DNA of 64,000 nucleotides, from the NCBI GenBank assembly GCA_016934635.1, contig JAFGSK010000071.1, positions 1,294 to 65,293 of the forward strand, in the 5' to 3' direction. The translations under genes and the position numbers were made by a program. This DNA is from a candidate division WOR-3 bacterium (GTDB lineage Bacteria; Hydrothermota; Tepidihabitantia; B3-TA06). Under the pieces are notes generated by a model. It was not told where the DNA came from and searched no databases. It saw nothing but the letters and a program-made list of their open reading frames with translations. Below, in pieces: positions 448 to 22,358 of this stretch; the stretch's first letter is position 1, and each line of letters begins with the position of its first letter.

Positions 448-550
448 GACTGATGTAAAGTGAGGATTCAGCGAAAAGCGGTTTTCGCTGCATGAAGCGA
501 CGTTTACGTCAAACATGGTGCCTTTGGGAAAGCTTCACACTTAATGGTCA
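1..550 (+). mobile_element. Right-hand end of an ISL3-family insertion sequence (partial, continues upstream of window); boundary approximate
   Basis: Transposase ORF runs off the 5' edge of the window. A hairpin GCGAAAAGCGGTTTTCGC lies at about 467-484. A GGCTCTTGACC-like terminal sequence at about 545-555 is adjacent to the truncated kinase. Confidence 0.5.
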
Positions 551-1214
551 AGAGCCAAATATAATAACACCTGACTCGACTTCTGGATGCCCAACATAGC
601 TCCGCTCAGGATTTCGTATGCAATCACTCCCAGGGAGTAGATGTCCGCTGAAGGCGTTACCTGGCCTCCTGCAAAAAGCTCGGGTGCGGCATAAGCTATA
701 GTCGTACCTCTCACTTCAGACGTAGGACTCAAAACGAAATCCTCTGAAAAACCGAAGTCCAATAGCGCGGGCTCCCCGTTATCCTTGATCAACAGATTGG
801 CAGGCTTGATGTCTATATGAACTACACCATTGCCGTGTAATCTGGAAAGGGTGGAAGATATCTCCTGAAGTACTGTAAGAAATGTATCAATGAAATCCTT
901 ATCCTTGCGTCGCTTCGACATATACTCGGTTATCGGCTTACCTTCGATGAGGTTCATGGTGAAGTATTCACACCCCTCGTGTTCTCCGAACTCTTTGACC
1001 CTAATAATCCCGGGAACATCCAGGCGTTCGAGGATGGCGAACTCACGCTGCAGGCGGTGAGAGGGATCGGGACTTGTGGATTTCTTTAACGCAATACCTC
1101 GCCCGTACCCTCATGTATGACCGCCCATACGACGCTGTCAGAACCTTCCCCCAGTTTGCAGACCTTGGAAAAACCTGGAGGTAGATTACTCTCTATCCCA
1201 CGGTTGCTGCCCAT
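541..1214 (-). pseudogene. Ser/Thr protein kinase catalytic domain, disrupted: a 1-nt frameshift at about 1086-1100 and C-terminal truncation next to the IS end
   Basis: The upstream minus ORF (1086..1406) carries a Gly-loop KLGEGSDSVVWAV...HEGTGEV. The downstream frame continues ...ALKK, then HIDIKPANLL (catalytic loop), DFGFS and AAPELF. Joining the two frames with one inserted base restores GEVxALKK (the VAIK motif). Subdomains X-XI are missing before the stop at 541. Confidence 0.65.
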
Positions 1215-3273: not shown

Positions 3274-4743
3274 ATGGATGAGAAAGAACGTATATCTGAG
3301 ATGATTGATACTATCAGGAAGCTGGCACAGGGGGATTATTCTGCACAGGTTAAGCTTACTGGCAAGAACGATGAACTTGATGCTTTGGGTATGGGTTTGA
3401 ATATGATGATTGACGATATTAGATGCAATACCAAGGAGTTGAATGAAGCTCACCGCGCCTCACTTAATATTATGGAGGATTTAGAAAGGGAGAGGAAGGA
3501 ATTACGCGCTTTAACGCAACAACTTCAAGCCGAAATAACCGAGCGTAAACTGGCCGAAAAAAAAGAGAAAGAGTATATAAAAAATCTCAAGTTTTTATAC
3601 GATGCCGCCCTGGAGTTTGTTGAACTGGTACCTTTCAAGGCGCTATTCAAATACATTGGGGAAAAACTTTACCAGTTAATAGGATCGGTCATGGTAATAA
3701 CAGTTTCCTATGACGAAGATACCGGAAAATTTACAGCGCGGAGTGTTTCAGGGGCGAGTAGTAAAACCGAGGTTGTACTTAAATTCTTTAGCAAAAATCC
3801 GGTAGACCTAGAGTTTACAATACCACCTGTGGCTCAAGCTCAGCTGCATAGGGGTAAATTACAGAAGGTTCCGAACATTCTTGAAAAGGTCACCGATGTC
3901 AAAATTTCTGCGGAAATGGAAGCGGAACTGAAAAAAGATGTCGGTCTTGGAAACGTATATACAATGGGCCTTGCAAGAGGAGAAAGTCTGTTCGGATTTG
4001 TAATTGTGTTCATGCATGAAGGTGTCGAATTGATTAATAAAAGTGTTGTGGAGACATTTATCAATCAAGCGTCAATTGCACTGCAACGCGGCAAGATTGA
4101 GAAAGAACTAACCGCATCTCTTACAGAAAAGGAATTGCTTTTAAAGGAGATTCACCACCGGGTAAAAAATAACCTGCAAGTAATATCTTCCCTATTAAAC
4201 CTTCAAGCAAGATACGTAAATGATGAAGTGATGTTGAAGGTTTTTGCAAACAGTCAGAGCCGGATTGATTCTATGGCCCTTATTCACGAAAGGCTGTATA
4301 AATCCAAAGACCTGGCAAGGGTGAATTTTGAAGGTTACTTAAAGAGCCTTGTCCGTTCGCTATTTGAGTCCCACAATATCAGTTCCAGTAATGTTTCGTT
4401 AAAGTTGGATGTAAGTGGTGTTTCGTTGAGTATTGACAAAGCCATTCCTTTGGGGTTGATTATAAATGAATTGATAAGTAACTCGTTTGAGCACGGATTT
4501 CCTGAAGGCAGGAAAGGTGAGATAAGGATCTATTTAAGGAAGGCGGAAGATCGGGTTATGCTGACCGTTGCCGATAACGGCGTTGGTTTTCCTGAGGATC
4601 ATGATTTGAAATCGACGGATTCGTTCGGATTACGATTGATCAATATGCTGGTAGACCAGTTGAAGGGGAAGATAGAGCTTTGCAAGACCGATGGATCGAA
4701 ATTTAATATATCCTTCTCAGCTAGTAATAAGGATAACGACTAA
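3274..4743 (+). CDS. Cytoplasmic sensor histidine kinase, HisKA_2/HWE-type (HAMP-like segment, coiled coil, sensor module, HisKA_2, HATPase_c)
   Basis: [22 protein letters not shown]-box typical of HisKA_2. HATPase_c with DNGVGFP and GLRLI motifs. No TM segments. Confidence 0.85.
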
Positions 4744-7700
4744 TGTCAACTACTAAGATACTTATCGTTGAAGACGAAAAAATCGTCGCTATTGATCTCA
4801 GGGATCAACTCGAAGCTTTAAGTTATAAGGTTATCGGCATCGTCTCTTCCGGGGAGGAGGCCATAATAAAAGCGAGCCAGATACATCCTGATATTGTTAT
4901 TATGGATATTAAACTGGAGGGTCAGATGGACGGTATCGATGCCGCAGAAAAGATGCGCAACGAACTTGACATTCCAGTAGTATATCTTACTGCATACGCT
5001 GACGAGATTATCTTGGAGCGAGCCAAGGCTACGGAACCGTTCGGTTACATCCTTAAGCCATTTAAGCAGAGGACTCTCCAGGTGGCTATTGAGACCGCTC
5101 TGTACAAGCATAAGACAGAGCAGAGGTTAAAGGCAAGCGAGGAAAGTTTCAGGCAGATAGCTGAGAATATTCGGGAGGTTTTCTGGCTTACTGATTGGAC
5201 TGAAAACAAGGTCCTTTATGTGAGTCCTGCGTACGAGGAGGTTTGGGGACATTCATGCGAGAGTCTTATTGAGAAGCCAGGGAGTTGGGCTGAGGATATC
5301 CATCCTTCCGATCGTGATCGTGTATTTGAAGCTTTCAGAACCCTGGCGCCTATTGGACGCTACGATGAAACCTACCGGATCATCAGGTCAGACGGAAGCG
5401 TGCGCTGGATCCACGACAGGGCGTTTCCCATTCACGATAGGAACGGTAATGTGTGGCGCGTTGCCGGAATATCAGAAGATATTACCAAAGAAAAAGAAGC
5501 GGAGGAAATACTACGAAGGGCGCGTGATGAACTTGAGGCGCGTGTCAAGGATCGTACTGCGGAACTGCGAGAAGAAGTACTGGAACGCAAGCGTGCCGAG
5601 GAGGAGGTGAAGCGGCGGGCCGAGAATCTCGAAGCTGTCAACCAGTTGGTAATTGAATTATCCTCTGCCCCGTCAAATGTGGATTTACTGGAATTGATTA
5701 ACAGGAAGCTAAGGGAGATTACCGGGGCATTGGCTACCGGAATCACCGTCTACGATCCTGAAAGCCAGGAACTTGTCCTGAAACATCTTGCCGCACCTGG
5801 TGAGATTCTCCAGAAAGCGGCGAAGATCATAGATAAAAAGCTCGCTGGTATGCGTTTCCCGGTATCCGGGGATTTCCTTGAACGGATGAAGAGAGAGGTT
5901 GTAGCATCATTTGAGGATCCCTCCGAGCTTTCGCTGGGACAAATACCCAAACCTGTTGCCAGGACCATACAACACACATTCGGGATAGGCGAGGTAACCG
6001 GCTTCGCTCTGCATTACGACGGAAAGGTGGTTGGCGCTGCAGGGATTTTTATGCCTCAGGGAAAGCCGCCTTTGTCAAAAGATCTCCTGCATATCTTTGC
6101 GAACGTGGTTTCGGTTACGCTGCAGCGTAAGCGTGCCGAGGAGGAAGTTAAGCTCAGGGCCGAGTATTCCAATGCCGTAAATGAGTTTGCGATCGAGTTG
6201 GCAGCCGCTTCTTCGGATGTGAACCTTTACGAATTGATTGGCGAGAAGTTAAAGAAGATCACGGCTGCGTTGTCTACCGTTGTTACATCCTATGATAGCC
6301 AAACCGGTGAACTATCCATAAGGTATCTAGGGGTTCCAGAGGACGACCTGCTGCAGATTAATAGGCTTCTCAAGCGTCGGGCAGAAGGGATGCGGTTCCA
6401 GGTTGATGAGAAGATGTTTGAGAAGATGATTACCGAAGTGGTAGCCACGTTCACAGACCTTTCGGAGTTGACCTTCGGTGAGATCCCGAAGCCTGTTGCT
6501 TCCGTTATCCAGAAAACGTTTGGTGTGGGTGAGATAGCGGGATTTGTCTTACATCACAGGGGTGATATTATGGGTTCGGCAGCGATATTTATGCCCAAGG
6601 ATTCCCGTGGGCTGCCTCGCAATGAAATGCACATTATTGCGAATCTCTGTGCGTTAGCCCTGCGGCGAAAACAGGTTGAGGAAAAAGAACACATTCACAT
6701 CCGTAACCTGTCATTCCTGTCAAAGAGTGCAACGGAATTCGTGGCTCTTGTTGAAGATGCGGATGTTTTCGGCTACATCGCAGAACGACTCACCGAACTC
6801 GTGGAAGGCGGAATTGTGGTTTTGGTTTCGTACGATGAACACACTGATAAGTTTAGGGGTGAAAAGGTTCTTGGCTTAGGGGAAAAAACAGAGCAAGTAC
6901 TCAAGATCTTTGGGAAAACCTTAGTCGGAATATCCACTCAAGTAAGCGCTGAGACCAAATCGCGTCTACTCAGCGGTGAGTTGAAGGAATTTCCAGAAAC
7001 CCTTTATGAGATAACAGCAGGTGGGATTCCAGAGGGGGTAAGCAAGGCGCTTGAGAAGGTCATTAGTCCTGGCGCTAAATACTCGATGGGTTTTGTTCAG
7101 CAGGATAGATTGTTAGGTGCGGCTATTGTCGTATTACGCAATGCACTCAAGCTGCGAAACCCGGATACCGTAGAGGCGTTTATTAACCAGGCATCGGTTG
7201 CCTTGCAGCGTAAGAATGCCGAACAAGCGCTGCGTCAATCCGAAGAGCGGTTTCGACGCTTTGCCGGTACCGTCACTGACATGATTTACCGGTACGACAC
7301 CAGACGCTCCGATTACGATTTTATCTCGCCTTCCTGCGAATTGCTGACCGGATACAGTGTTGGAGCCTTCAGGTCTGATCCTGAACACTTCTGGGAAAGT
7401 CTTATCCATCCTGATGATTTTAAAAGGGTGCGAGAGGAAAGAAGACATCAGCTGAGTCAAGAGTCAGGTACATCGTTCAATCTCGATTTCCGCATAATTA
7501 GAAAAGACCGCAGGATGATCTTTGTTAACGAACGTGGGGATTTTGAGGTTGACTTAAATGGACGGATTACGAGCTTTAACGGGGTGGTTCGTGATATAAC
7601 CGAGCAAAAAGTTGCAGAGCAGCAGCTCAAGCGGAGGGCGGAAACAAGCACCGTTCTTGCCGCCCTGACCACTGAACTTTACAGCGCCGAATCCGTTCAG

Positions 7701-10121
7701 GAGGTCCTGGATGTAACAATAAAGCATCTTTCCCAGGTATTCGGCTTCTTTGTCAGTGTTAATTTGATAGACAAGAAAGGAACCAGACCAGTCCTCGCTC
7801 TTAAGGCCTATCATGTTGAATCCAGGATTCTCGGACTAGCTGAAAAATTACTCGGGAGAAGGATACTCGACTGGCCGATTCCACTCTACGAAGACACCGT
7901 AATATCGAGGACAATGCGAACCGGACACCCGACGGTTATTGGTCTGGACTTTGTTCCGGATGAGCCGGTTGTAGAAACCAGTATCAAGAGTATGCTGGAG
8001 TCAATGATTGAAGCTCACAGCCCGTTACTTCCAATAGCCAGGAAAATAGCCGAGCAGGCGGGGGACAAATCGCTGTTGGGGATCCCTTTTTCCAACGCCT
8101 CGGGTGAAATAATCGGTTCTTTAACGGTGGTGGCTGATTTCCGGTTCACCAGGGATGACTACAACCTTGTCAAGGTGACTTCGGATATCATCGGTCGAGC
8201 CATCGGACAGCTGATGCTGACCGAGGAATTGCAGGAATCGGAGGAACGCTACCGGAGCTTGCAGGCCAACGTTCCTGTTGGAATCTTCAGAACGACCCCG
8301 GAGGGGGATTTGCTTTCAGCTAATCCTGCGATGCTCAGGATGCTGGGTTATGCCTCGAAGGAGGAGTTCAAACCGGTACCGTTGGAAGATGTGTATGTTA
8401 ATCCCGAACAACGGGAGGAATTTGCAAAGCTAATGGAACAGGAGGATTCGGTAACAGGTTTTGAGGTTCAGCTTAGGCATAAGGACGGTTCGACTTTCTG
8501 GGCATCAATGAATGCTACTGCTATCAAAGACGAGAAGGGAAAGATACTTTACTTCGATGGAATCCTGGAAGATATTACCGAACGCAAGCAAGCTGAGGAT
8601 TCTCTTATGCGAGAACGCCAGGCTTTTTCCATCATTGCAGAAGCTGCGATTCACGCTAAAGGGATTCAGGATCTTTGTTATCGCGTTTTGTCTGGCCTGG
8701 TCAAGACTTTGGATTTCGATGTGGGCACTGTTCAACTGTACGATCCTGTCGATCGAACACTTACCCTGAAAGCGATGTCAGGGACTTGGGGTGACAAGAT
8801 ATACGATTACGATCCTCCACAGCATATAGACGATCCTGAATACGTGGGTGCAGTCGTAGCAAGGTCTCGTAATCCTATCTTTGCTCCTGACGTGACACAA
8901 CATCAGATCTATGATACCCATAAACAGAGGCTTGAGGAGAATCATATTCGAGCGCTCATTACATGGCCGATTCTAGGATCGAACGATGAACTCTTAGGGA
9001 TTATGCACCTTATGGATGAGAACACGAGGGAGATTCCTGAAAAAGATCGCGTTTTTTTCGAGACAGTAACAGATATGTTTGCCACTGTCCTTGAACGAAA
9101 GCAGGCTGAAGAGGAGTTGAGGATAAAAGACATTGCAATCCAAAGTTCTATTAGTGGTATTGCGCTTATGGATATTGACGGTAAACTTACCTATGTCAAC
9201 GATTCATGTCTTGCGATGTGGGGATATGAGGATACAAAAGAGGTTTTAGGTAAGCCTGGTGGAAAGTATTATAAAAATAAGCGAGATGTGGTTAAGATAA
9301 TGAAGTCTTTAAGGGATGAAGGTAGCTGGATAGGAGAAGCCGAAGGCTTGAGAAAAGACGGGGTAAGCTTTCCCGTCCATCTGGCCATAAGTCTTGTGAA
9401 GAATGAAACCGGTAAGCCTTTGTTTACGATGGCTTCGTTCGTTGATGTTACAGAACGTAGGCAAGCCGAAGATCGGATTAAGGCGGCTCTTAAAGAAAAA
9501 GAGGTTCTTCTCAAAGAGATTCACCACAGGGTGAAGAATAACTTGCAGGTAATCTCATCCCTACTAAATTTACAGGCAGAGCATATTACAGACGAAGAAA
9601 CATTAAAAGTTTTCACGGAGAGTCAGAGTAGGGTTCGCTCAATCGGCCTGATTCACGAAAAGCTGTATCAATCCCCTGATTTGGCTCACATCAATCTTGC
9701 CGAATACATCCGGGGTCTTGGTGATTATTTGTTAAGTATCTATAGGGTTAATACCAGTTTTGTCAGACTCAACATGGAAATGGATGACATATTAATCGAG
9801 TTGGATAAGGCGATCCCGTGTGCATTAATAGTTAACGAGTTCGTCTCCAATGCTCTGAAGTACGCCTTTCCACATACAAGGAAAGGTATGGTTCGTATCA
9901 GGTTGCACAGAGATGAGGATGACGTAGTTATGGTCGTTTCAGATAATGGTGTAGGTATGCCTCCTGATGTAGATTTTCGTAAGACAGAATCGTTGGGGTT
10001 GCAACTGGTTGGGATATTGGTCGATCAACTTGAAGGCAGCGTTGAGCTTGAACGGAAAGAAGGAACGATATTTACGGTAAGATTCCCCTTGGGAAATTCA
10101 GGGAGAAAGGCAGATGTCTAA
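4743..10121 (+). CDS. Giant multi-sensor hybrid histidine kinase: N-terminal REC, multiple PAS and GAF-like modules, C-terminal HisKA_2 + HATPase_c
   Basis: REC with D and K (IVIMDIKL, ILKPF). PAS modules (e.g. 5130-5500, 7240-7610, 8221-8600, 9110-9470). GAF-like modules. C-terminal [21 protein letters not shown] plus DNGVGMP/GLQLV ATPase motifs. Start overlaps the upstream stop (TAATG). Confidence 0.85.
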   Translation: MSTTKILIVEDEKIVAIDLRDQLEALSYKVIGIVSSGEEAIIKASQIHPDIVIMDIKLEGQMDGIDAAEKMRNELDIPVVYLTAYADEIILERAKATEPFGYILKPFKQRTLQVAIETALYKHKTEQRLKASEESFRQIAENIREVFWLTDWTENKVLYVSPAYEEVWGHSCESLIEKPGSWAEDIHPSDRDRVFEAFRTLAPIGRYDETYRIIRSDGSVRWIHDRAFPIHDRNGNVWRVAGISEDITKEKEAEEILRRARDELEARVKDRTAELREEVLERKRAEEEVKRRAENLEAVNQLVIELSSAPSNVDLLELINRKLREITGALATGITVYDPESQELVLKHLAAPGEILQKAAKIIDKKLAGMRFPVSGDFLERMKREVVASFEDPSELSLGQIPKPVARTIQHTFGIGEVTGFALHYDGKVVGAAGIFMPQGKPPLSKDLLHIFANVVSVTLQRKRAEEEVKLRAEYSNAVNEFAIELAAASSDVNLYELIGEKLKKITAALSTVVTSYDSQTGELSIRYLGVPEDDLLQINRLLKRRAEGMRFQVDEKMFEKMITEVVATFTDLSELTFGEIPKPVASVIQKTFGVGEIAGFVLHHRGDIMGSAAIFMPKDSRGLPRNEMHIIANLCALALRRKQVEEKEHIHIRNLSFLSKSATEFVALVEDADVFGYIAERLTELVEGGIVVLVSYDEHTDKFRGEKVLGLGEKTEQVLKIFGKTLVGISTQVSAETKSRLLSGELKEFPETLYEITAGGIPEGVSKALEKVISPGAKYSMGFVQQDRLLGAAIVVLRNALKLRNPDTVEAFINQASVALQRKNAEQALRQSEERFRRFAGTVTDMIYRYDTRRSDYDFISPSCELLTGYSVGAFRSDPEHFWESLIHPDDFKRVREERRHQLSQESGTSFNLDFRIIRKDRRMIFVNERGDFEVDLNGRITSFNGVVRDITEQKVAEQQLKRRAETSTVLAALTTELYSAESVQEVLDVTIKHLSQVFGFFVSVNLIDKKGTRPVLALKAYHVESRILGLAEKLLGRRILDWPIPLYEDTVISRTMRTGHPTVIGLDFVPDEPVVETSIKSMLESMIEAHSPLLPIARKIAEQAGDKSLLGIPFSNASGEIIGSLTVVADFRFTRDDYNLVKVTSDIIGRAIGQLMLTEELQESEERYRSLQANVPVGIFRTTPEGDLLSANPAMLRMLGYASKEEFKPVPLEDVYVNPEQREEFAKLMEQEDSVTGFEVQLRHKDGSTFWASMNATAIKDEKGKILYFDGILEDITERKQAEDSLMRERQAFSIIAEAAIHAKGIQDLCYRVLSGLVKTLDFDVGTVQLYDPVDRTLTLKAMSGTWGDKIYDYDPPQHIDDPEYVGAVVARSRNPIFAPDVTQHQIYDTHKQRLEENHIRALITWPILGSNDELLGIMHLMDENTREIPEKDRVFFETVTDMFATVLERKQAEEELRIKDIAIQSSISGIALMDIDGKLTYVNDSCLAMWGYEDTKEVLGKPGGKYYKNKRDVVKIMKSLRDEGSWIGEAEGLRKDGVSFPVHLAISLVKNETGKPLFTMASFVDVTERRQAEDRIKAALKEKEVLLKEIHHRVKNNLQVISSLLNLQAEHITDEETLKVFTESQSRVRSIGLIHEKLYQSPDLAHINLAEYIRGLGDYLLSIYRVNTSFVRLNMEMDDILIELDKAIPCALIVNEFVSNALKYAFPHTRKGMVRIRLHRDEDDVVMVVSDNGVGMPPDVDFRKTESLGLQLVGILVDQLEGSVELERKEGTIFTVRFPLGNSGRKADV

Positions 10122-13100
10122 AGCCAGCATTCTTGTTGTAGAAGATATCTCGGTGACCGCGCTGGATATAAAAAATCGGTTGTTGGAGTACGGATATTCA
10201 GTATGTGGGGTGGTGACTTCCGGAGAGGAAGCTTTGCTGGAAACTGAAAGATTAAGGCCTGATCTGGTACTTATGGATATTATATTACAAGGTAAAATAG
10301 ACGGGGTCGAGGCAGCAGAGAAGATTAAGGAGGAATTAAATATACCTGTTGTTTATCTCACGGCGCACATGGATAATGCCACCCTGGATAGAGCAAGACT
10401 AACCGAGCCGTTTGGTTATATCGTTAAACCATTTGAGACCAGGGAGATGGTTTCTACTTTGGAACTGGCGCTTTATAGACATAAGATTGAGCGGGCATTA
10501 AAGGAATCTGAGGAGCGTTACCGAAGCCTCCATTCCAACGTCCCGGTAGGCGTATTTCGTTCCACACCTTCGGGGGAGGTTCTTTCAGCTAATCCGGCCA
10601 TGGTAAGGATGATGGGCTATGATTCGGAAGATGAATACAAAACCGTCTCGATTCCTGACTTGTATCTTTATCCGCAGCAACGTGATAGGTTTGTCAAAAG
10701 GTTGAAAGATGATGGTGCGATTACTGAGTTTGAGGTTCAGCTTAGAAGAAAGAACCAGACCGTTTTCTGGGCGTCCCTGACCGCAAAGGCTGTTTCCGAT
10801 AACGAGGGAAAGATAGTACATTACGACGGTATCCTGGAAGACATTTCCGAACGCAAACAACGTGAGTTGCGTGGACAGATCAGGACTCAGCTTCTAGACA
10901 AGCTGCGAGGGGCAGAAACAATCCAGGGGTGTTTGCAGTTAGGTTGCGAGGCGGTACGAGACGCGGGTTTGTTCAAACGTGCGGTATTTACAACAAAGAA
11001 CGAGAAGGGCGAGACAACCAACGCCGGCTATGTTGGTGTGGATCGACAGATCGTTGAGGAGTTGAGGAAAAAACCGCCTGCAACACGTGAGATGTATGCC
11101 CGGATGTTGAAAGAAGATTTCAAGATAAGCCATTCCTACTTTTTACCGGTAGAGGCGGGTTTGGATATCTCCCAGACCGGTAGGTACGTTCTTCAAGACG
11201 TCTCCTCAGGGGAAGGCCCAGATGCATGGCAGCGGGGAGACGAGTTGCTTGTTCCCATGTTTTCCATGAGTGGTTTAGTGGAAAGCTGGCTCTCTGTGGA
11301 TACGCCCGTGGATGGGAAAAGACCTGACGAAGCAACAATTAATTACCTGGAGGATATCGTAGACATCGTCGCTCGTCAGATCAGAGAGATTAAAAACATC
11401 ACTGCGTTGCGAGAATCCGAAGAACGATACCGGAGTTTAACAGAAAGAGCCAGTGCCGGGGTATATATTTTCGGGCCTCAGGACCGATTTATTTTTGCAA
11501 ATCCCGCAATGGAAAAAATTACCGGTTATTCGCGTAAAGAACTGATTCATATGAATCCTTGGGACATAGTAGTTCCAGAAGACAAAGAAGGCGTACTGAA
11601 AGATCGAAGCCAGGCAAGAGTCAAAGGGGAGGAACTTGAGAGTTCTTATCGGATGCGGGTTATACGAAAGAATGGGGAGGAGGCAACACTCGAGATAAAA
11701 GCTACCCCGATTACGTATGAAGGAAAGCCTGCTCAGCTCGGACACTGTATCGATATAACAGAGAGTATCAAGAACGAGAAAAAGATCGAACATCTCAATT
11801 CTGTTCTCAGAGCCATACGGAATGTCAACCAATTGATCAGTCACGAGAGAGTGCCGGAGAAATTACTCGAAGGGATTTGCAGCAAGCTCGTAGAGACTCG
11901 TAGCTTCTACAGCGCTTGGGTCGTTCTTGTGGATGATTCCGGCAAAGTGGCGTTCATTGCCGAAGCGGGACTCAAGGACAAATTTGCGCCGATTTTAAAG
12001 CCGCTCAAACAAGGAAGACTTACGGATTGCGGTCTCAAGGCCCTGGAATGTGATGATATAATAGTAATCGATGATCCGGCAAACCTATGTCGAGATTGCC
12101 ATATTCTATCCGGAGAGATTGAATCGGGCATGATGTATACCAGATTGAAGTATGCAGAAAAGATCTTCGGTGTATTAGCCGTATCCTTATCTTCCGAACT
12201 CAGCCGTGAAACCGAGGAACAGGAGTTGTTCTGTGAAGTAGGAGGAGATATCGCGTTTGCACTGTACAGCATCGAGGCAGATGAGAAACGCAGGCAGGCG
12301 GAAGAGGCGCTGGAAAGGGAACACCGCGCTTTCAAGATAATCGCCGAAGCTTCAGTCCAGGCAAAGGATATTGCTGATTTATGTAAAAGGGTACTTGAAG
12401 GATTAGTAAAAGCTTTAGTTTTTGACGTGGGAACCTTCAGATTGTACGATGCGGATCACAAATTACTCAAGTTGTGGGCTTCTTTTGGCTTGAGTGAAGA
12501 AGAGATAAAGGATGCATCTGGGGCTCAACCGTTGAACGATCCCCGTTACGTTGCAGCTTTAACGGCACGCACTTCAGAACCAATAATCGCTCCTGATATC
12601 TACAGGACAGAAAGACTGCAACCCTTTATATCTAGACTAGAAAAATTCGAAGAGCGCTCCCTTATTTCCTGGCCTATCCTTGACGGACGGCAAGGCTTGC
12701 TCGGTGTATTACAACTCTGGTCCAAGAAAGAAGTAGATATCTCTGAAGGTGATAGGACATTTTTTGAAAGAGTGGCCGGGATGTTTGCCACTGTTTTGGA
12801 ACGCAAACGTACAGAGGAGGAACTTGATCGTCAGCACCAAAAAATAGAAGCATTGTTTGATAATGTCGATGTGCTGCTCTGGTCTATGCGAGAAGGAGAA
12901 GATGGGGAACTCTATTACGAACAGGTCAATTCTGCTTTTGCAGCTGTTGAAGGTTACTCCCCTGATTATTATAATGAGAAGACCATCTCTGAATTACATC
13001 CTCGTGAACAATGCAATGGTATCATGAATACTTATGCCTGGGTTAAGAATGACGGGATGCACGTTAATGATGTTCATTATAAGGGTAGACACTTTGTTAT

Positions 13101-15927
13101 GCGGTTCTTTCCCTTAAAAGATTTTGACGGCAGGATACGTGGATTCATCGGTTCAGGTATCGATATAACCGACCGTAAACGTGCCGAAGAAGGTATTAAA
13201 TCCCGTCTATTCTATGAAGAGAGTGTATCACACTGCTCTCAAATATTGGTAGAGATGGTGGATTTGGGTGAAGCACTTCAGCAGGTGACAGACGAGATGC
13301 TTTCGGTAGGAAAGGCCAGTCGTGCTTTTATATTCAAAAATCTTGACGGTCCGCAGGATGTTATATTCAGTCGTCTGATTAACGAGGCCGTTGCCGATGG
13401 TGTAGAGCCTCAGATTACGGATACCAGGTTTCAACACCTTGTTTTGCAAGAGGCGTCACAGGAGCTTTTCCAGAAACTTTCTTCCGGAAGACCTTATGGA
13501 GGATCTGTTAAGGAATTACCTTCAGAGGATAGAACGGCTCTTTTTTCACCTGAAACCCGTTCTGTTTTAATACTACCGATTCTTATAGAAGATAAATTCT
13601 GGGGATTTATTGGTTTTGAGGATCAGGTGAAAGAACGCAAGTGGACCCAGGAAGATATTCAACTCTTACGTACCCTAGGATCGCTGATTGGCTCTACGAT
13701 AGAAAGAAGGCGAGCAGAGGAGGGGTTACGTGAATCAGAGGAACGCTATCGGGCGTTTACCGAGGAAGCCCTGGTCGGCGTTTATATTTATCGTGAAAGA
13801 CGATTCCTTTTCGTAAACCGGGCCATGGAAGAAATCACCGGGTACTCCCGTGAAGAACTCCTCGCTATGGATACCGGGAAGCTGGTAATTGCCGAAGATC
13901 AAGCTATGTTAACGGCCAGATCCGAGGCGAGGGAAAGAGGCGAGGAGGTTCCTTCACAGTACAGTATGAGAATTGAAAGGAAGAACGGCCAGATAGCCGT
14001 TCTTGAGGTAAGAACCCGCCAGATAGTTTTTGCCGGACAAAAGGCTTATCTGGGCAACTGCGTGGATATTACCGAGATTCGGAGGGTCCAGGAGGCGTTA
14101 GAGAAATCAGAGGAGCGTTATCGGGTACTTACAGAGGAAGCTATGGTCGGTATTTATCTGACCGTGGGCAAGAATTTCGTTTTTCTTAATCCTGCGATGG
14201 AGAAGATAACCGGCTATACTCGTAATGAATTACTCAAGATAGATATGCATTCCATAGTTGTTTCGGAAGATGTAGAGATGATAACCGAAAGAAAAAAACA
14301 GCGAAAACCCGGACAGCCGGATCAATACACAATGCGCATAAAACGAAAGACCGGAGAGATTGCTACGTTGGAAGTCAGGGTTCGTCCTATTCCTTATCAG
14401 GATAAAGCGGCTTTCCTAGGTAACTGTGTTGACATTACCGAGATAATAAATAATAGGAAACAGATAGAACAGGCGAAAAGGGCCTGGGAGAGTACGTTTG
14501 ATTCTATCTCTGATCTCGTGATGATCCTGGATACTGAATATCGCATTATCCGGGCTAATCGTGCCGTAAAGGAGTATACCGGTATCGATTTCAACGATCT
14601 TTTAGGAAGAAATTATCTGGACGTATACAATTTGAACGAAGAAGATAAAGGCATGAAAGAAATACTAGGCAGAAAAGCCAAGCTTCCCGAACACTTCGAG
14701 ATCAAAGACTCGGTACGGGGCAGGATGTTTTCGGTATCGGTTTCTCCGTTGATCGATCCAGTAGGTGAGATAATAGCCACGGTTCACGTAGCGCGTGACA
14801 TCAGCGATATGCGGATGATGGAAGAGGCCTTGGCAGAATCTGAGGCGCAATTCAGGGGTTTGGCGGAGAGTGCAATGGATATTATATTCAGCGTGGAACT
14901 CGACGGAATGATCAGCTACGTCAATCCCAGCGTTGAGGAGATCCTGGGTGTCAATCCGGCGGTATTCATAGGAAGTAACCTCGGGAGTATGAAGGACTCG
15001 AGGCTTTTTACGGCTGAGGTTCGTAAAGTACTTAGCCGAAATCTTTCCTCAAATCTTGAAGAAAAAGATATACCGTTTTTCGAGATAGAGACCGAAGACG
15101 TGAAAGGGCGCAAGCATGTCATAGAGGTGTCTGCACGTAGATTATTTCATCGTATAGTAGGTATCGCACGCGACGTTACAGAACGGAATCTTATGCAACA
15201 GCAGTTGATCAAGGCTTCCAAACTGGCCTCGATCGGAGTCCTCGCTGCTGGGATAGCTCATCAGGTCAATAATCCGCTTGCTATACTTCTCGTACACTCT
15301 ACACTTCTTCGAACTATCTTTACAGATAGGGAGGAAATACCGTTGGAAGTAAAAGAAGAGGTATCAGAATATCTCGATACGATGGAGGAGCAGGTAGAAC
15401 GAACTCGTCGGGTAGTTTCAGGTCTTTTGGAGTTTACTCAACCTGAACGATCCGAACCGAAGCCTACTGACGTTAATCCAATCGTAAATCAAGCTGCAAA
15501 GTGGCTTTCTCAACGTTACTCTCTGGAGGAGTTGACGCTTGAGCTTTTTCTGGATAAAGCCTTGCCCCGAGCATTTCTCGATAAGGTAGCGTTGGAGCAG
15601 GTAATTATGAACGTTATCGAAAATGCATACGATGCCATGGAAGGCTCAGGCAAACTCTCAATCGAGACCATGCTTGTAAATCAGAGTACGGTTAGTATCC
15701 GGATCAGCGATACCGGCCCAGGTGTTCCTTCCGAGATTCGAGATGAGATTTTTGAACCTCTTTATACAACAAAGTCCGGCAAAAAGGGAACAGGATTAGG
15801 CTTGTCTCTTGCCTCAATGCTTTTAGAGCGTTTCGGAGGACGTATTTATCTTGCAGACACCAAAAACGAAGGTGCGAGTTTTGTAATAGAAGTTCCAGTA
15901 TACCAGGATAAGGTTGATGAATCTTAA
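10114..15927 (+). CDS. Giant multi-sensor hybrid histidine kinase: N-terminal REC, multiple PAS/GAF modules, classic HisKA + HATPase_c
   Basis: REC (LVLMDIILQ, IVKPF). At least six PAS-like and three GAF-like modules. H-box IAHQVNNPLAIL (HisKA). HATPase_c with DTGPGVP and GTGLGLSL. Start overlaps the upstream stop by 8 nt (ATGTCTAA). Confidence 0.85.
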   Translation: MSKASILVVEDISVTALDIKNRLLEYGYSVCGVVTSGEEALLETERLRPDLVLMDIILQGKIDGVEAAEKIKEELNIPVVYLTAHMDNATLDRARLTEPFGYIVKPFETREMVSTLELALYRHKIERALKESEERYRSLHSNVPVGVFRSTPSGEVLSANPAMVRMMGYDSEDEYKTVSIPDLYLYPQQRDRFVKRLKDDGAITEFEVQLRRKNQTVFWASLTAKAVSDNEGKIVHYDGILEDISERKQRELRGQIRTQLLDKLRGAETIQGCLQLGCEAVRDAGLFKRAVFTTKNEKGETTNAGYVGVDRQIVEELRKKPPATREMYARMLKEDFKISHSYFLPVEAGLDISQTGRYVLQDVSSGEGPDAWQRGDELLVPMFSMSGLVESWLSVDTPVDGKRPDEATINYLEDIVDIVARQIREIKNITALRESEERYRSLTERASAGVYIFGPQDRFIFANPAMEKITGYSRKELIHMNPWDIVVPEDKEGVLKDRSQARVKGEELESSYRMRVIRKNGEEATLEIKATPITYEGKPAQLGHCIDITESIKNEKKIEHLNSVLRAIRNVNQLISHERVPEKLLEGICSKLVETRSFYSAWVVLVDDSGKVAFIAEAGLKDKFAPILKPLKQGRLTDCGLKALECDDIIVIDDPANLCRDCHILSGEIESGMMYTRLKYAEKIFGVLAVSLSSELSRETEEQELFCEVGGDIAFALYSIEADEKRRQAEEALEREHRAFKIIAEASVQAKDIADLCKRVLEGLVKALVFDVGTFRLYDADHKLLKLWASFGLSEEEIKDASGAQPLNDPRYVAALTARTSEPIIAPDIYRTERLQPFISRLEKFEERSLISWPILDGRQGLLGVLQLWSKKEVDISEGDRTFFERVAGMFATVLERKRTEEELDRQHQKIEALFDNVDVLLWSMREGEDGELYYEQVNSAFAAVEGYSPDYYNEKTISELHPREQCNGIMNTYAWVKNDGMHVNDVHYKGRHFVMRFFPLKDFDGRIRGFIGSGIDITDRKRAEEGIKSRLFYEESVSHCSQILVEMVDLGEALQQVTDEMLSVGKASRAFIFKNLDGPQDVIFSRLINEAVADGVEPQITDTRFQHLVLQEASQELFQKLSSGRPYGGSVKELPSEDRTALFSPETRSVLILPILIEDKFWGFIGFEDQVKERKWTQEDIQLLRTLGSLIGSTIERRRAEEGLRESEERYRAFTEEALVGVYIYRERRFLFVNRAMEEITGYSREELLAMDTGKLVIAEDQAMLTARSEARERGEEVPSQYSMRIERKNGQIAVLEVRTRQIVFAGQKAYLGNCVDITEIRRVQEALEKSEERYRVLTEEAMVGIYLTVGKNFVFLNPAMEKITGYTRNELLKIDMHSIVVSEDVEMITERKKQRKPGQPDQYTMRIKRKTGEIATLEVRVRPIPYQDKAAFLGNCVDITEIINNRKQIEQAKRAWESTFDSISDLVMILDTEYRIIRANRAVKEYTGIDFNDLLGRNYLDVYNLNEEDKGMKEILGRKAKLPEHFEIKDSVRGRMFSVSVSPLIDPVGEIIATVHVARDISDMRMMEEALAESEAQFRGLAESAMDIIFSVELDGMISYVNPSVEEILGVNPAVFIGSNLGSMKDSRLFTAEVRKVLSRNLSSNLEEKDIPFFEIETEDVKGRKHVIEVSARRLFHRIVGIARDVTERNLMQQQLIKASKLASIGVLAAGIAHQVNNPLAILLVHSTLLRTIFTDREEIPLEVKEEVSEYLDTMEEQVERTRRVVSGLLEFTQPERSEPKPTDVNPIVNQAAKWLSQRYSLEELTLELFLDKALPRAFLDKVALEQVIMNVIENAYDAMEGSGKLSIETMLVNQSTVSIRISDTGPGVPSEIRDEIFEPLYTTKSGKKGTGLGLSLASMLLERFGGRIYLADTKNEGASFVIEVPVYQDKVDES

Positions 15928-15988: not shown

Positions 15989-16729
15989 GTGGAGATGATG
16001 GCTAAGGCACGTATTCTTTTTGTTGATGATGAGCGCACGTTCGCTGACGCTATGTCCCAGTTACTTCGTATTAACGGTTATGAAGTTCAAGCAGCCTATT
16101 CCGGAAAACTTGCCATGGAGATATTCCAACCCGGGGAGTTTGACCTGGTGATTACCGACTTAAGCATGCCTACCATGGATGGAATTGAGTTGGTCCGTCA
16201 GATTAGAAAACTTAATTCCTATCAGAGGATTATTGTTGTTACAGGGTTTCCCTCCCAGCGTTCACAAGAACAGGCTTATAAGTTGGGTACATTGAATTAT
16301 ATAGCCAAGCCCTTTAAGCCTCAGCGGTTTCTTGAATTGGTTAACGATGCCCTGCGAGGTCAGGAGGAGGGTTTGCTTGGCGCTATAAAGCTTTCTCCTT
16401 CAGATCTTGTGCAGCTTTACAGCTATATGGGAAAGACAATTGTACTTGAAATACTTAAAGGCAAGAACGGAGAGGCGGGTCGAATATACTTCAGTAAAGG
16501 CCAGGTAGTTCACGCAGAAACCGAGCAACTTAAAGGCAAGGAAGCGTTTTACGAGATTCAAACGTGGTTTTCAGGTATATTTAAGACAGAGAAACCGCAG
16601 CCAGAATTTCCTCATACGATTGATGAGGATGTGGACGTGTTGCTTCTGGAAGCGGCACGCAGGCAGGATGAACAACCTTGGCCTGTTGTTAAAAGAGAGG
16701 AGTGTGAAGATAATGAAGACTCCGGTTGA
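15989..16729 (+). CDS. Response regulator: REC domain fused to DUF4388 (PATAN-like) domain
   Basis: REC motifs (ILFVDDE, LVITDLSMP, YIAKPF). C-terminal LSPSDLVQLYSYMGKTIVLEIL...GRIYFSKGQVVHAE...GKEAFYEIQTWFSGIF matches the DUF4388 consensus. Confidence 0.7.
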   Translation: MEMMAKARILFVDDERTFADAMSQLLRINGYEVQAAYSGKLAMEIFQPGEFDLVITDLSMPTMDGIELVRQIRKLNSYQRIIVVTGFPSQRSQEQAYKLGTLNYIAKPFKPQRFLELVNDALRGQEEGLLGAIKLSPSDLVQLYSYMGKTIVLEILKGKNGEAGRIYFSKGQVVHAETEQLKGKEAFYEIQTWFSGIFKTEKPQPEFPHTIDEDVDVLLLEAARRQDEQPWPVVKREECEDNEDSG

Positions 16730-16761: not shown

Positions 16762-17664
16762 ATGAATGAGCGGGCAAGGATCCTTTTTGTAGACGATGAG
16801 CGTAAATTTGCCGATGCAATGGCAAAGGTGCTACGATACGGGGATTTTAACGTACAGACTGCGTATTCGGGAAGCCAGGCTCTTGATTTTTATCAAAGCG
16901 AAAGCTTTGACCTGGTTATCACTGATCTCAAGATGCCGGTAATGGACGGTATTGAATTGATTCGTCGAATAAAACAGATCAATCAAGATCAGTTAATACT
17001 GGTTATCACCGCATTTCCCACCCAGTGTATGCCATGGAACAGAAGGTTCTCAGAATCAGGCGCGCCAGAGCTGGATCTGGAAACGGTCAACTATCTGGTT
17101 AAGCCTTTTACACCCAAGCGTTTGATAGAGGTTGTTGAGAAAACCTTTCGTGAAAAAGATGTGGCTTTGGGCCGGAAGGTTTCAGTTGCCGAATCTGCAG
17201 ACGAAACACTCACTTCGGAAGAAGAGATGTTTTCCCATGAACCTGTAGCAGGGAAAACCAGCCAGAAAGTGGTGAAACCGACATCCGGAAACTTTATATC
17301 CAATGCTGCATTAGAGATTCTTGAAGAGTCCTCCGGGGCCGTGGGTGCACCGGCTGTATGTGCCCTGGTTGGTTTTGACGGGGTAACCATAGCTGAGGTG
17401 AATACCAGCGGTATGGGTAAGGATGCCTATTCAGGAAAGTTCGCAGACGCCATGAAGCTCTTACGGAAAACACTTGCCGAGGTTGGAAGCGGACATCTGA
17501 ACGAGGGGACACTCAAACTGGATAAACACTGGATTCTCGTCCGGTTCCTGGATCGAGCGAATTGTTACCTTTGTATAGTTGCTCTGCTCGGTGTTCCGAT
17601 CGGAACCCTGAGAACGGTTGCCAAAAAGACGGTTGAAGGGCTGAGCTCGGTCCTGGAGATGTAA
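16762..17664 (+). CDS. Response regulator: REC domain fused to Roadblock/LC7 (MglB-like) domain
   Basis: REC is a paralog of the preceding gene (ARILFVDDERKFADAMAKVL). C-terminal ALEILEESSGAVGAPAVCALVGFDGVTIAEV...CYLCIVALLGVPIGTLRTVAKKTVEGL fits the Roadblock/LC7 fold pattern. Confidence 0.6.
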   Translation: MNERARILFVDDERKFADAMAKVLRYGDFNVQTAYSGSQALDFYQSESFDLVITDLKMPVMDGIELIRRIKQINQDQLILVITAFPTQCMPWNRRFSESGAPELDLETVNYLVKPFTPKRLIEVVEKTFREKDVALGRKVSVAESADETLTSEEEMFSHEPVAGKTSQKVVKPTSGNFISNAALEILEESSGAVGAPAVCALVGFDGVTIAEVNTSGMGKDAYSGKFADAMKLLRKTLAEVGSGHLNEGTLKLDKHWILVRFLDRANCYLCIVALLGVPIGTLRTVAKKTVEGLSSVLEM

Positions 17665-19300: not shown

Positions 19301-19499
19301 TCAGCGGTTAGTTCTCCATCCTTGACATCACCGATCCTGTGACTATTATTATCCTCAATGTACGGCAATAAGGCGGTTGCATTCGCTACTGAACCAGGGG
19401 ATGCCTCCAGAAAAGACTCCAGACATGAATCGGACGCAGGTTTTTTTCGGGTTAACGGTCTATATAATGAGAAAGAAATTCCTTCGATCGGAGGTTTTA

Positions 19500-22358
19500 A
19501 TGTGGTCTAAGATGATTAGGGCTGCCATTGTGGGGTTGATACTTGCCGTGCCTGCGTCTGCGCAGTATTTCTACGGCAAGAACAAGGTGCAGCGGGAGGT
19601 TGAAGCAACCTATACCTACGAGACCGAGCATTGTACCATCTACATAGAAGAGGGCGGAGAGCCTCTTGCTAGGTTTGCTGCAGAGGCGGCAGAGGAGGCC
19701 TATAAGCAGCATGCCCAGGACTTCGGGTTCGAGATTCCTTTCAAGATTCCGGTCATCATCTATAAATCGCAGCCTGATTTTGCCGCAACCAACATTATAC
19801 TTGAACCTATCGAGGAATCGATAGGCGGCTTTGCAGAGATTTTCAAGAACCGCGCGGTAATTCCTTTTACCGGATCCTACGAGGATCTCAGGCACGTTAT
19901 CTTCCACGAACTGGTGCATATTTTCCAGTACGAGCTATACTACTCTTTGACTATGTCCAACCTTTTCTCCATCATACCCGGTTTTACACCGCCTCTGTGG
20001 ATAATGGAGGGCTGTGCAGAATTTTCGTCATCCCACGGAGGCGCGGACGAAGACGCCTTCATGCGCGATCTACTCCTGACCAACAATATCATTCCCCTGG
20101 AAGAGCTGGAGTATTGGCAGGGTTATATCGTTTACCGCCAGGGTGAGTCGGTATTCATGTTCATCGAGGATCGCTACGGTCGTGAAAAGGCCTTTGAACT
20201 CATGCACGCCATCAAGTTGAGGGGGAGCATGGACGGTGCGTTCGAGAAGGTTTTCGGGATGAGTGTCGAGGAGTTCGGCAAGGACTGGCTGAACTGGCTG
20301 CGCAAGAAGTATCTTCCCGAGATAGAAAAACTGGACAACCGCAAGATCCAGGCCAGGCTGCTAACAGACCATGAAAAGGACTTTTCGTACTACAACGGTA
20401 GTGTGGCCCTCTCGCCATCAGGTGCCAAGATAGCCTATGCTACCACCAAGGGAGACTATATCACGGTCAACGTGATCAGCGGGTTCGACGGCAAGCCTTT
20501 AAAGAAGCTGCTCAAGGCAGGTCGCTCGGCAACCTTTGAGAGGTTACCGCTTCTGCGCCGGACCCTTGCCTGGTCCGAAGATGAGACCTATCTTGCAGTA
20601 CTAGGATTTTCCCGCAACCAGCCGGTTCTTTTGTGGGTAAACTACTCCACAGGCAAGACCGAGAAAAGGTATCGGCTGAAGGTTGATGATGCATATGCAC
20701 CTGTCATATCACCTGACGGTAATCGCGTGGTTTACGTGGGTATCAAGGACGGCCAAAGCGATCTTTATTCGCTTGACCTGGGGTCGGGAAACGTTGAACG
20801 TTTAACCTACGACCTTTACGAGGAGCAGGACCCTTCTTTTAACGAAGGTTACGTGCTTTACGTGTGCGATAAGCCTGATCAAGACAGCGTATGGCGCGTA
20901 GGCAGCTACGCCGTATGGCAGCTATCAGCGTCAGGAAGGACCAAGCGCGTCTCACCGAGGTTCTCTGAACTTTCCTGCCCATATCGTATGGAAGATGAGA
21001 TTGTATTCATAGGTTCCGGATACAATCTTTACTCCTATGATCCGGAGGATTCCACCCTTATTCAGCTTACCGACTGGTTCGAGAAGATAGAGGAGTTTTC
21101 GCCTGCTTCAAGCGGGAAGGCTGCGATGATTATTTACACCAACTCGGGTTACGACGTGGCAATGCTTAACGGTACCCTCGAAGGTCTTACACCTGCCCAG
21201 GACAGCCTGGAGATAGCCCATGCCGATCTTTTCTCCTATGAGCCGGAAGAGGTGACCATAGAGGACCTTGAACCCTACAAGCCAGCCTTTTCGGCGGATT
21301 ACATCTACGGGTCAGGGGCTTACTCCTCCCTGTACGGGGCAACCGGCAATATCAGCCTGGCTATCAGCGATATGCTGGGAGATCACCGCATCTACATAGA
21401 CGCCAATCTCTACGGGGATATACTCTATTCGGATATAGTCGTATCCTACTGGTTCCTTAAACGCAGGGTAGATTATGCGGTTGGCGGTTTTCAACTTGGC
21501 GATTATTATCTGTATTTAACCTCGGATTCGTCGTTTTTGTACATCGAGCGTGCCCGGCGAGGATTGAGTACCCTGGTTTCAATGCCCTGGAGTAAGTTTT
21601 TCAGACTGGAAACCGGCCTTGACGGGATGGCGGTAACTCACCATGAGTATTACGACGGATACATTGACGAAACAGGCAACATAGTATTTGAGCATGATAC
21701 GATATACACCCAGCCTTTATTCCAAGCCAACGCCTGGCTTGTGTTCGACAATGCGATATGGAATTACTATACCCCGATGAACGGATTGCGGCTGAGGTTG
21801 GGTGGGTACAGTTCCTTTCTTTCTTCTACCCAATACCAGACCGTGATGACCGACCTCAGGGGCTATCTACCGATCACACGCAGAGCCTCGATTGCCCTTC
21901 GTACCTTTGGGGCTGCAAGTTTCGGTCAAGACAGGGAATACTTCTATCTGGCCGGAGGCGGATTCGGGGAGTACCGCGATTTCTTCTTCTTCGGCGGGCC
22001 GTACGAGGTTCGGGGCTACCAGTACTCCTCCTACGATGCGTTCGTCGGTTCAAAGGTTGCTTTTGCAAACCTTGAGCTCCGGGTTCCGTTCGTGGATCAG
22101 CTGAAGATGTCTTTTCCCCTGCCATTGAACCTGGGCGGGATTCGAGGGGTTGTTTTTACCGATGCCGGGTTCGTATGGGACGAAGAACTGCCTCGACTTT
22201 GGCAGGGCGGCAGACTCGAAGACCTCAAGGCCGGGTACGGGGTAGGAATTCGCTGGGTCTTCGGTTACTTTATGCTCAAGTTTGATTTTGCCAGGCCGTA
22301 TCAAACCGATGAGGAGAAACCATGGAAGTTTCATTTCCGGATAGGTGCGGATTTCTAA
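19500..22358 (+). CDS. Outer-membrane Omp85-family beta-barrel protein with N-terminal HEXXH metallopeptidase-like domain and PD40/TolB-like beta-propeller repeats
   Basis: RBS GGAGG 9 nt upstream of ATG 19500. Signal peptide MWSKMIRAAIVGLILAVPASAQ. HELVH zinc-binding motif. PD40-like repeats (ISPDGNRVVYV, SDLYSLDLGSG). C-terminal Omp85 barrel signatures: the VRGY loop-6 motif (GGPYEVRGYQY), GYGVGIRWVFGYFMLKFDFARP, terminal F. Confidence 0.6.
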   Translation: MWSKMIRAAIVGLILAVPASAQYFYGKNKVQREVEATYTYETEHCTIYIEEGGEPLARFAAEAAEEAYKQHAQDFGFEIPFKIPVIIYKSQPDFAATNIILEPIEESIGGFAEIFKNRAVIPFTGSYEDLRHVIFHELVHIFQYELYYSLTMSNLFSIIPGFTPPLWIMEGCAEFSSSHGGADEDAFMRDLLLTNNIIPLEELEYWQGYIVYRQGESVFMFIEDRYGREKAFELMHAIKLRGSMDGAFEKVFGMSVEEFGKDWLNWLRKKYLPEIEKLDNRKIQARLLTDHEKDFSYYNGSVALSPSGAKIAYATTKGDYITVNVISGFDGKPLKKLLKAGRSATFERLPLLRRTLAWSEDETYLAVLGFSRNQPVLLWVNYSTGKTEKRYRLKVDDAYAPVISPDGNRVVYVGIKDGQSDLYSLDLGSGNVERLTYDLYEEQDPSFNEGYVLYVCDKPDQDSVWRVGSYAVWQLSASGRTKRVSPRFSELSCPYRMEDEIVFIGSGYNLYSYDPEDSTLIQLTDWFEKIEEFSPASSGKAAMIIYTNSGYDVAMLNGTLEGLTPAQDSLEIAHADLFSYEPEEVTIEDLEPYKPAFSADYIYGSGAYSSLYGATGNISLAISDMLGDHRIYIDANLYGDILYSDIVVSYWFLKRRVDYAVGGFQLGDYYLYLTSDSSFLYIERARRGLSTLVSMPWSKFFRLETGLDGMAVTHHEYYDGYIDETGNIVFEHDTIYTQPLFQANAWLVFDNAIWNYYTPMNGLRLRLGGYSSFLSSTQYQTVMTDLRGYLPITRRASIALRTFGAASFGQDREYFYLAGGGFGEYRDFFFFGGPYEVRGYQYSSYDAFVGSKVAFANLELRVPFVDQLKMSFPLPLNLGGIRGVVFTDAGFVWDEELPRLWQGGRLEDLKAGYGVGIRWVFGYFMLKFDFARPYQTDEEKPWKFHFRIGADF

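Follow-up and report, generated by a model that had tools for sequence, protein, structure and literature searches.

Two giant hybrid kinases at one locus

The window considered here is a 64,000-nucleotide (nt) stretch of contig JAFGSK010000071.1 (positions 1,294 to 65,293, forward strand) from a candidate division WOR-3 bacterium, and carries two adjacent giant genes, g6 and g7, placed on a 112-kb contig of a metagenome-assembled genome (MAG) and also present in Logan run SRR13394437. Both were confirmed as plus-strand open reading frames (ORFs), encoding hybrid sensor histidine kinases of 1792 and 1937 amino acids (aa), with the stop of g6 and the start of g7 overlapping by 8 nt (window 10114-10121; Table 1). 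An original prediction, made from the letters of the DNA, had described near-identical PAS and GAF modules shared between these genes and attributed them to module shuffling or gene conversion; every peptide string that it quoted has been found, and the measured module boundaries agree with those that it gave.

The receivers of both proteins score well above the Pfam Response_reg cut-off of 30.2 bits (71.0 bits in g6, 66.3 bits in g7), and their phospho-acceptor Asp motifs are readable (DIVIMDIKL, DLVLMDIIL). The catalytic cores differ: g6 ends in HisKA_2 (100.9 bits, with an H-box) and HATPase_c (56.4 bits), and g7 in HisKA (36.1 bits, with AHQVNNPL) and HATPase_c (78.5 bits). By these Pfam matches g6 and g7 are assigned to the hybrid sensor histidine kinases, each combining a receiver, an H-box domain and HATPase_c. 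Between its termini g6 runs REC, PAS, three rep modules, PAS, GAF-like preA, PAS(A6), GAF(G6), PAS, HisKA_2, HATPase; g7 runs REC, PAS(A7), X, PAS(B1), GAF-like Y, GAF(G7), PAS, GAF, PAS(B2), PAS(B3), PAS, PAS, HisKA, HATPase. The A6 (g6 aa 1168-1280) and A7 (g7 aa 134-246) modules are the best-scoring stretches for Pfam PAS and PAS_9, above the gathering cut-offs, with matches spanning profile positions 1-113 and 1-103. G6 (g6 aa 1307-1451) scores 54.0 bits with GAF_2 (PF13185), whose gathering cut-off is 28.6; the best GAF_2 stretch of G7 is g7 aa 751-896, the 90.6 bits of g7 being a whole-protein score summed over three stretches.

Three mutually paralogous PAS units had been predicted in g7, and they are borne out as B1 to B3, with pairwise protein identities of 51-55%. 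Sharing extends to the N-terminal receivers (51%) and, within g6, to the rep repeats, neither of which had been described: rep1 shares 46% identity with rep2, and rep3 about 25% with both. A Pfam scan gave no family match for X or the rep modules; in profile-profile comparison a weak signal was obtained (X against Y, P = 1.7e-4; rep against preA, P = 2.9e-4; probability at most 49%), and X and rep are probably divergent GAF-like domains. A sequence search of the PDB with G6 and A6 returned no match for either.

Divergence of the shared modules

The shared modules proved far from near-identical. The PAS(A) pair has 56-58.5% protein identity (58.5% over 123 aa) and 66-68% DNA identity, the GAF(G) pair 49% and 51%, and the receivers 51% and 56%. 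The pairs are collinear over their full length, with tblastn E-values of 4e-51 for PAS and 4e-47 for GAF, and the likeness is not limited to consensus positions: it is spread over whole modules, and identity to PAS(A) is no more than 22-34% in the other PAS units of g6 and g7. When 1.84 billion representative proteins were scanned by HMMER with G6 as the query, 465 scored at E <= 1e-3, of which 88 reached E <= 1e-30, and many of these proteins hold two to four copies, so GAF(G) is best described, by this profile search, as a small and specific family. PAS(A), by the identities of its matches, belongs to a broader S-box subfamily, since 50-56% identity to A6 and A7 is reached by PAS domains of unrelated phyla, P0012, P0006 and P0010 among them. 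A Thorarchaeota GAF is 44-46% identical to G6 and G7. These distant matches are what favours a generic PAS/GAF consensus, with no specific relationship between the modules, as the whole explanation; set against the small GAF(G) family, the low identity of the other PAS units of the same proteins and the whole-module extent of the likeness, that explanation is very unlikely.

Synonymous divergence (dS), estimated by the Nei-Gojobori method on pairwise module alignments, is about 1.4-1.5 for the PAS(A) pair and saturated, and so incomputable, for the GAF, REC and rep pairs and most PAS(B) pairs. The best DNA self-match within g6-g7 by blastn is 67.7% over 375 nt, between A6 and A7; no DNA tract in g6-g7 exceeds about 71% identity or is elevated over its flanks, sliding third-position identity stays at or below 0.67, and exact DNA repeats occur only as short stretches of 18-41 nt that encode motifs. 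In a blastn comparison with L100, the paralogous locus of the same genome, there was likewise no high-identity tract, with matches at or below 72%. Identical codons stand at 39 of the 73 identical residues of PAS(A) (27.9 expected from codon usage, z = 2.9), and at the rate expected from codon usage in the other module pairs.

Because dS is saturated or high and no high-identity DNA tract exists, recent gene conversion between g6 and g7 is excluded. The proposal that conversion or concerted evolution has kept the PAS and GAF modules near-identical could draw on their full-length collinearity in adjacent same-strand genes and on the slight codon excess of the PAS pair; protein identities of 49-58%, DNA identities of 51-68%, the dS values, the lack of any tract distinct from its flanks and the finding that the g6 and g7 modules are not mutual nearest relatives leave it practically no credence.

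Nearest relatives of the modules

In neighbour-joining (NJ) trees the module pairs were recovered as exclusive partners in almost no bootstrap replicate (A6 with A7, 2/200; G6 with G7, 0/200; REC6 with REC7, 2/200), and domains that outscore the g6/g7 partner number 40 for G6, 22 for G7, 4 for A6 and 2 for A7. The nearest relative of G6 is in P0126 (MBN2380739.1), encoded on the same contig, at 58%, followed by P0140 and P0138 (54-55%); G7 is nearest to P0194/L015 (63%), P0165 (61%), P0172 (59%) and P0199 from another WOR-3 MAG (58%). A6 is closest to the PAS(A) of L099 (69-71%), L015 (68%), and P0281 and P0282 (68-69%), and the best-scoring relatives of A7 are P0296 and P0012, slightly above A6 in third place. 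Since each module is closer to other proteins and bootstrap pairing does not exceed 2/200, the shared modules are judged to be neither direct copies of each other nor directly exchanged between g6 and g7.

The two GAF modules also keep different company: G6-type GAFs adjoin HisKA_2 cores, and the hosts of G7-type GAFs are HisKA kinases and HDIG proteins, where PAS units of the B and P6b types lie next to them. By tree position and context, G6 and G7 are read as different GAF sub-types with different usual neighbours.

Long proteins entered the comparison through the GAF search and a full-length g7 search only. A word-indexed search with the PAS-GAF part of g6 missed the query protein itself as well as g7, and is informative on PAS identity in other phyla only. 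A contig scan of metagenomes with a PAS(A)-X-PAS(B) alignment returned 80 loci, all generic PAS proteins matched at generic S-box peptides and none with X or preA. In a genome-contig scan with g6 the best loci were from Thermoanaerobaculia, and have in common only the REC/N-terminal region (46%) and, through an adjacent kinase, the HisKA_2 core (52%); they were considered as orthologues of the g6 modules and rejected, the sensor modules being unrelated. In Thermoanaerobaculia MAGs (L002, L003 and L004) a HisKA_2 kinase gene of about 480 aa is directly followed by a gene for a REC-led hybrid kinase of 1171 aa, a conserved arrangement, and its presence there with unrelated sensor modules means that the kinase-then-REC-kinase template is widespread.

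A one-gene form and the PAS(A) junction

A locus recovered from Logan run SRR33089659 (L099) has flanks syntenic on both sides with those of g6 and g7 (STAS protein 69%, HisKA_2 kinase 55%, REC-PatA_N regulator 63% and REC regulator 44% identical), and carries in place of the two genes a single gene of 3097 aa, P0277, with a single PAS(A). The order of P0277 is REC6-like, P6a (71%), ..., preA (72%), PAS(A) (71% to A6), X (70%), ..., G7 (56%), ..., HisKA, collinear with g6 aa 1-1288 and then with g7 aa 255-1937. Another locus, L015 (JGI 3300040952), has the same two downstream receiver genes and the same preA-PAS(A)-X junction in a single gene split by a frameshift; the frame changes at L015:13564-13612, is called as overlapping genes of 1264 aa and 834 aa, and reflects either a real frameshift (a pseudogene) or a sequencing error.

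The modules preA, PAS(A) and X are contiguous in L099, L015, P0278 and P0200, with preA 72-73% and X 70% identical between the window and L099/L015. Site patterns in L099, L015 and P0278 are g6-like through PAS(A) and g7-like from the DGI..DI.ERK motif onwards, at the C-terminal end of PAS(A). By blastn, window 7614-8598 and 10503-11390 map to overlapping L099 stretches, 6333-7317 and 6953-7840, and it is this overlap that delimits a window-specific block of 2269 nt, from the linker behind A6 to A7 (Table 1). At a spacing of 2269 nt, the two PAS(A) copies form direct repeats in the same register on either side of this block, which the single-gene relatives lack, and by these alignments they mark a junction of gene fission or fusion. 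A derivation of the block as a copy of the junction between the upstream kinase end and the g6 start was also considered, and was rejected because A7 is only about 30% identical to the first PAS of g6.

Gene fusion and fission by deletion or unequal recombination between direct repeats is a general mechanism. The locus resembles it in the in-register placing of the repeats and in a one-gene form that keeps exactly one repeat, preceded by left-type and followed by right-type sequence; it departs from it in that the PAS(A) repeats are today only about 68% identical in DNA, and in the old age of the event.

Fission or fusion

The contiguity of preA, PAS and X in the more distant P0278 (53-61%) and P0200 (45-55%), the mutual closeness of the window and L099/L015 at 70-73% (preA 72-73%, against 45-53% to P0278/P0200) and the identical junction pattern in L099, L015 and P0278 together suggest fission: an L099-like single gene would be ancestral, and a GAF-PAS-HisKA_2-HATPase|REC-PAS(A) block from a paralogous two-gene locus would have recombined into it at PAS(A) in the lineage of the window, dividing the gene. 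Such a locus is exemplified by the same-genome pair P0126|P0297, to which G6 is nearest (58%) and REC7 among the closest (56%), and at whose junction an 8-nt stop/start overlap occurs (L100:5640-5647) that is similar in sequence to the one at g6|g7 (ATGTCTAA and GTGGCTAA for g6|g7 and P0126|P0297). HK2 shares 55% identity with the core of P0126, yet the tree does not place the two together; the PAS that comes first in P0297 is of a type other than A, and no donor above 60% identity was found. Insertion would also require two in-register junctions. With only 56% identity to A6 and 51% to its counterpart in L099, A7 is no copy of A6 made after the split. Fission is a tentative reading, at a little under an even chance.

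Fusion reverses the polarity: the two-gene form would be ancestral, and the L099/L015 lineage would have deleted the stretch between PAS(A6) and PAS(A7), joining the N-terminal part of g6 to the C-terminal part of g7. One deletion of 2269 nt yields exactly the observed in-frame junction, the split between A6 and A7 is older than that between the window and L099, and the C-terminal half of g6 is collinear with its paralogue P0126 and with the A-G-PAS-HisKA_2 end of P0143. In the window and at L100, L096 (4-nt overlap) and L097 (1-nt overlap) alike, a HisKA_2 kinase gene is succeeded by a REC...HisKA kinase gene whose start overlaps the stop of the first. The same deletion would, however, have to recreate by chance the preA-PAS-X adjacency of the more distant P0278 and P0200, and A6 and A7 had probably already diverged too far for efficient homologous recombination; fusion too falls just short of an even chance. 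The block modules are 55-58% identical to their same-genome paralogues, and orthologous G, HK and REC modules are equally diverged between the window and L099/L015 (53-63%); NJ trees of preA, X, PAS(A), REC and HK2 give clear shallow groupings and unsupported deep nodes.

Mosaic relatives and cassette exchange

Module painting, in which 27 relatives were scored with 24 modules of g6 and g7, identified all 27 as mosaics of one module repertoire in which order and copy number vary, most of them ending in a fairly constant PAS-PAS-PAS-HisKA tail. The same-genome paralogues P0126 and P0297, on the same 112-kb contig and followed by a sigma-54 response regulator gene (L100), carry counterparts of G6 (58% identical), HK2 (55%), REC7 (56%) and HK1 (57%) in a differing module order. 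Module shuffling, as originally predicted, thus stands in a broad sense, through the mosaic relatives and the PAS(A)-bracketed block; its narrower sense, a direct exchange between g6 and g7, does not, given the closer relatives found elsewhere.

Exchange on the scale of a cassette is apparent between the two single-gene loci, which come from different samples: a tract of 1586 nt covering preA-PAS(A)-X (L015:11129-12714 and L099:6297-7882) is 92.4% identical in DNA, with sharp edges and a third-position identity mostly of 0.8-0.95, and the rest of the loci match mostly at about 64-70%. The tract has the look of a recent event between giant kinase genes that had already diverged, either the transfer of a cassette or gene conversion, and serves at its 92% identity as a positive control for the conversion test applied to g6 and g7. 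Its existence means that module exchange does occur in this kinase family; on the identity profiles, exchange at cassette scale is a feature of the family but not a recent one in this window.

A separate observation concerns the receiver of g6: REC6 is only 53% identical to the syntenic L099 receiver (L099:3855-4226), the adjacent PAS being 71% identical, and is closer to the receivers of P0283, P0288 and P0289 (59-60%). This suggests a replacement of the receiver module, too, in one lineage.

Gene neighbourhood

The genes g6 and g7 stand within a two-component cluster in the order STAS, HAMP-HisKA_2 kinase, g6, g7, REC-PatA_N, REC (Table 1). At the left edge, gene calls of the matching Logan contig place at window 46-447 (+) the 3' part of an ISL3-family transposase gene that begins beyond the window, and at 541-957 (-) a short ORF resembling Ser/Thr protein kinases. 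Further downstream, window 19377-22358 encodes a protein of 993 aa in which a peptidase MA-like region, a PD40 repeat and an Omp85 domain are joined, and window 23849-27691 encodes a C25 (gingipain-like) peptidase of 1280 aa that bears a Por_Secre_tail sorting domain, as used in type IX secretion.

Table 1. Window positions of the two kinase genes, their modules and the genes around them.
Feature	Position	Strand	Description	Basis or remark
g6	4743-10121	+	hybrid sensor histidine kinase, 1792 aa, MBN2380673.1	ORF, translation, Pfam
g7	10114-15927	+	hybrid sensor histidine kinase, 1937 aa, MBN2380674.1	ORF, translation, Pfam
REC6	4743-5117	+	g6 receiver domain	Pfam
rep1-3	5595-7202	+	tandem modules of g6, ~180 aa each	no Pfam match
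preA	7638-8219	+	weak GAF domain directly upstream of PAS(A6)	Pfam GAF, E = 4.8e-6
PAS(A6)	8220-8606	+	g6 aa 1160-1288	
Window-specific block	8599-10867	+	2269 nt: linker, GAF(G6), PAS, HisKA_2, HATPase, stop/start, REC7, PAS(A7)	blastn, site patterns, painting
GAF(G6)	8619-9128	+	g6 aa 1293-1462	Pfam GAF_2
REC7	10114-10488	+	g7 receiver domain	Pfam
PAS(A7)	10489-10875	+	g7 aa 126-254	
X	10876-11403	+	176-aa module directly downstream of PAS(A7)	no Pfam match
PAS(B1)	11404-11778	+	PAS unit of g7	51-52% identical to B2 and B3
GAF(G7)	12325-12834	+	g7 aa 738-907	Pfam GAF_2
PAS(B2)	13696-14073	+	PAS unit of g7	55% identical to B3, dS saturated
PAS(B3)	14074-14454	+	PAS unit of g7	
TPR protein	at 1512		signalling cluster	
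STAS/SpoIIAA-like protein	at 2867		signalling cluster	
HAMP-HisKA_2 kinase	3274-4743	+	upstream kinase; stop overlaps g6 start by 1 nt	syntenic with 588-aa kinase upstream of the L099 giant gene
REC-PatA_N response regulator	15989-16729	+	downstream of g7	syntenic in L099 and L015
REC response regulator	16762-17664	+	downstream of g7	syntenic in L099 and L015

Interpretation and significance

Taken together, the REC, PAS(A) and GAF(G) modules shared by g6 and g7 are probably old paralogues from a lineage-expanded repertoire recombined at module boundaries, and not recent copies or homogenised sequences, with one event at a PAS(A) boundary separating the two-gene from the one-gene form. The repertoire would have expanded in the lineage and recombined many times at module boundaries; g6 and g7 would act as two translationally coupled hybrid sensor histidine kinases within one two-component cluster, and a single recombination at the PAS(A) boundary would either have inserted the block of kinase end and receiver start (fission) or have deleted the stretch between the repeats (fusion). 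From the domain content, each kinase is predicted to phosphorylate the N-terminal receiver of the next, in a multi-tier phosphotransfer chain from the upstream kinase to the REC-g6 kinase, the REC-g7 kinase and finally the two receivers, and in such a cascade one kinase tier would be gained or lost through the PAS(A)-bounded event.

Several points weigh against this account. All relatives are metagenomic contigs, so that synteny is the only basis for orthology; fission and fusion, as directions of the change, stand at about even odds; and the cascade is a likeness read from domain content only. The NJ trees were built on short modules (126-170 columns) with poorly supported deep nodes, and the coverage of PAS relatives was incomplete, the 303-aa query having drawn from the word index only proteins of up to about 530 aa. 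The codon excess of PAS(A) means that the PAS pair is somewhat younger than the other pairs, or that its codon choice is constrained.

Lineage-specific expansion of histidine kinases with domain shuffling has been described by Alm et al. 2006 (PMC1630713), for example in Desulfovibrio, and the rearrangement reported here is an event of that known kind, involving no new kind of system. As in those cases, paralogous kinases of the same genome have common cores or sensor modules, with PAS and GAF domains that vary in sequence along the protein and in count, existing signalling domains are newly combined, and no transposon is implicated at the junctions; the present case differs in the unusual size of the proteins (1.8-3.1 thousand aa, 11-19 modules), in shared modules that occur on two core families, HisKA_2 and HisKA, and in a rearrangement that can be mapped, through the syntenic one-gene locus, to the end of a single PAS. 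The proteins further resemble the hybrid kinases annotated as 'PAS domain S-box protein' (TIGR00229-type; PF00989, PF13426, PF08447, PF13185), with their S-box N-cap ESEERYR, their DIT-ERK-AEE linkers, and REC, HisKA or HisKA_2 and HATPase_c above the Pfam cut-offs; unlike these, A6 and G6 are without a sequence-detectable solved structure, and X and the rep modules (~180 aa) match no Pfam family.

A more far-reaching proposal, which we regard as unlikely, is that the conserved linkers at PAS boundaries (the S-box N-cap and the DIT-ERK-AEE C-cap) are preferred recombination joints, through which WOR-3-type bacteria would swap entire sensor cassettes among their giant kinase genes and gain or lose kinase tiers within short spans of evolution, the L015/L099 cassette being a recent exchange and the window block an older one. 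If true, signal input in this family would be diversified by cassettes rather than by sporadic domain shuffling.

The locus corrects the impression of near-identical or gene-converting modules, and offers instead a concrete case in which the rearrangement of a giant multi-sensor kinase is mapped to one PAS module boundary, with two coupled kinases of different cores and one kinase of 3097 aa as its alternative forms. Such a case bears on how sensor arrays and kinase cascades may be rewired, and may point protein engineers to sites at which nature tolerates the fusion of PAS, GAF and kinase modules.

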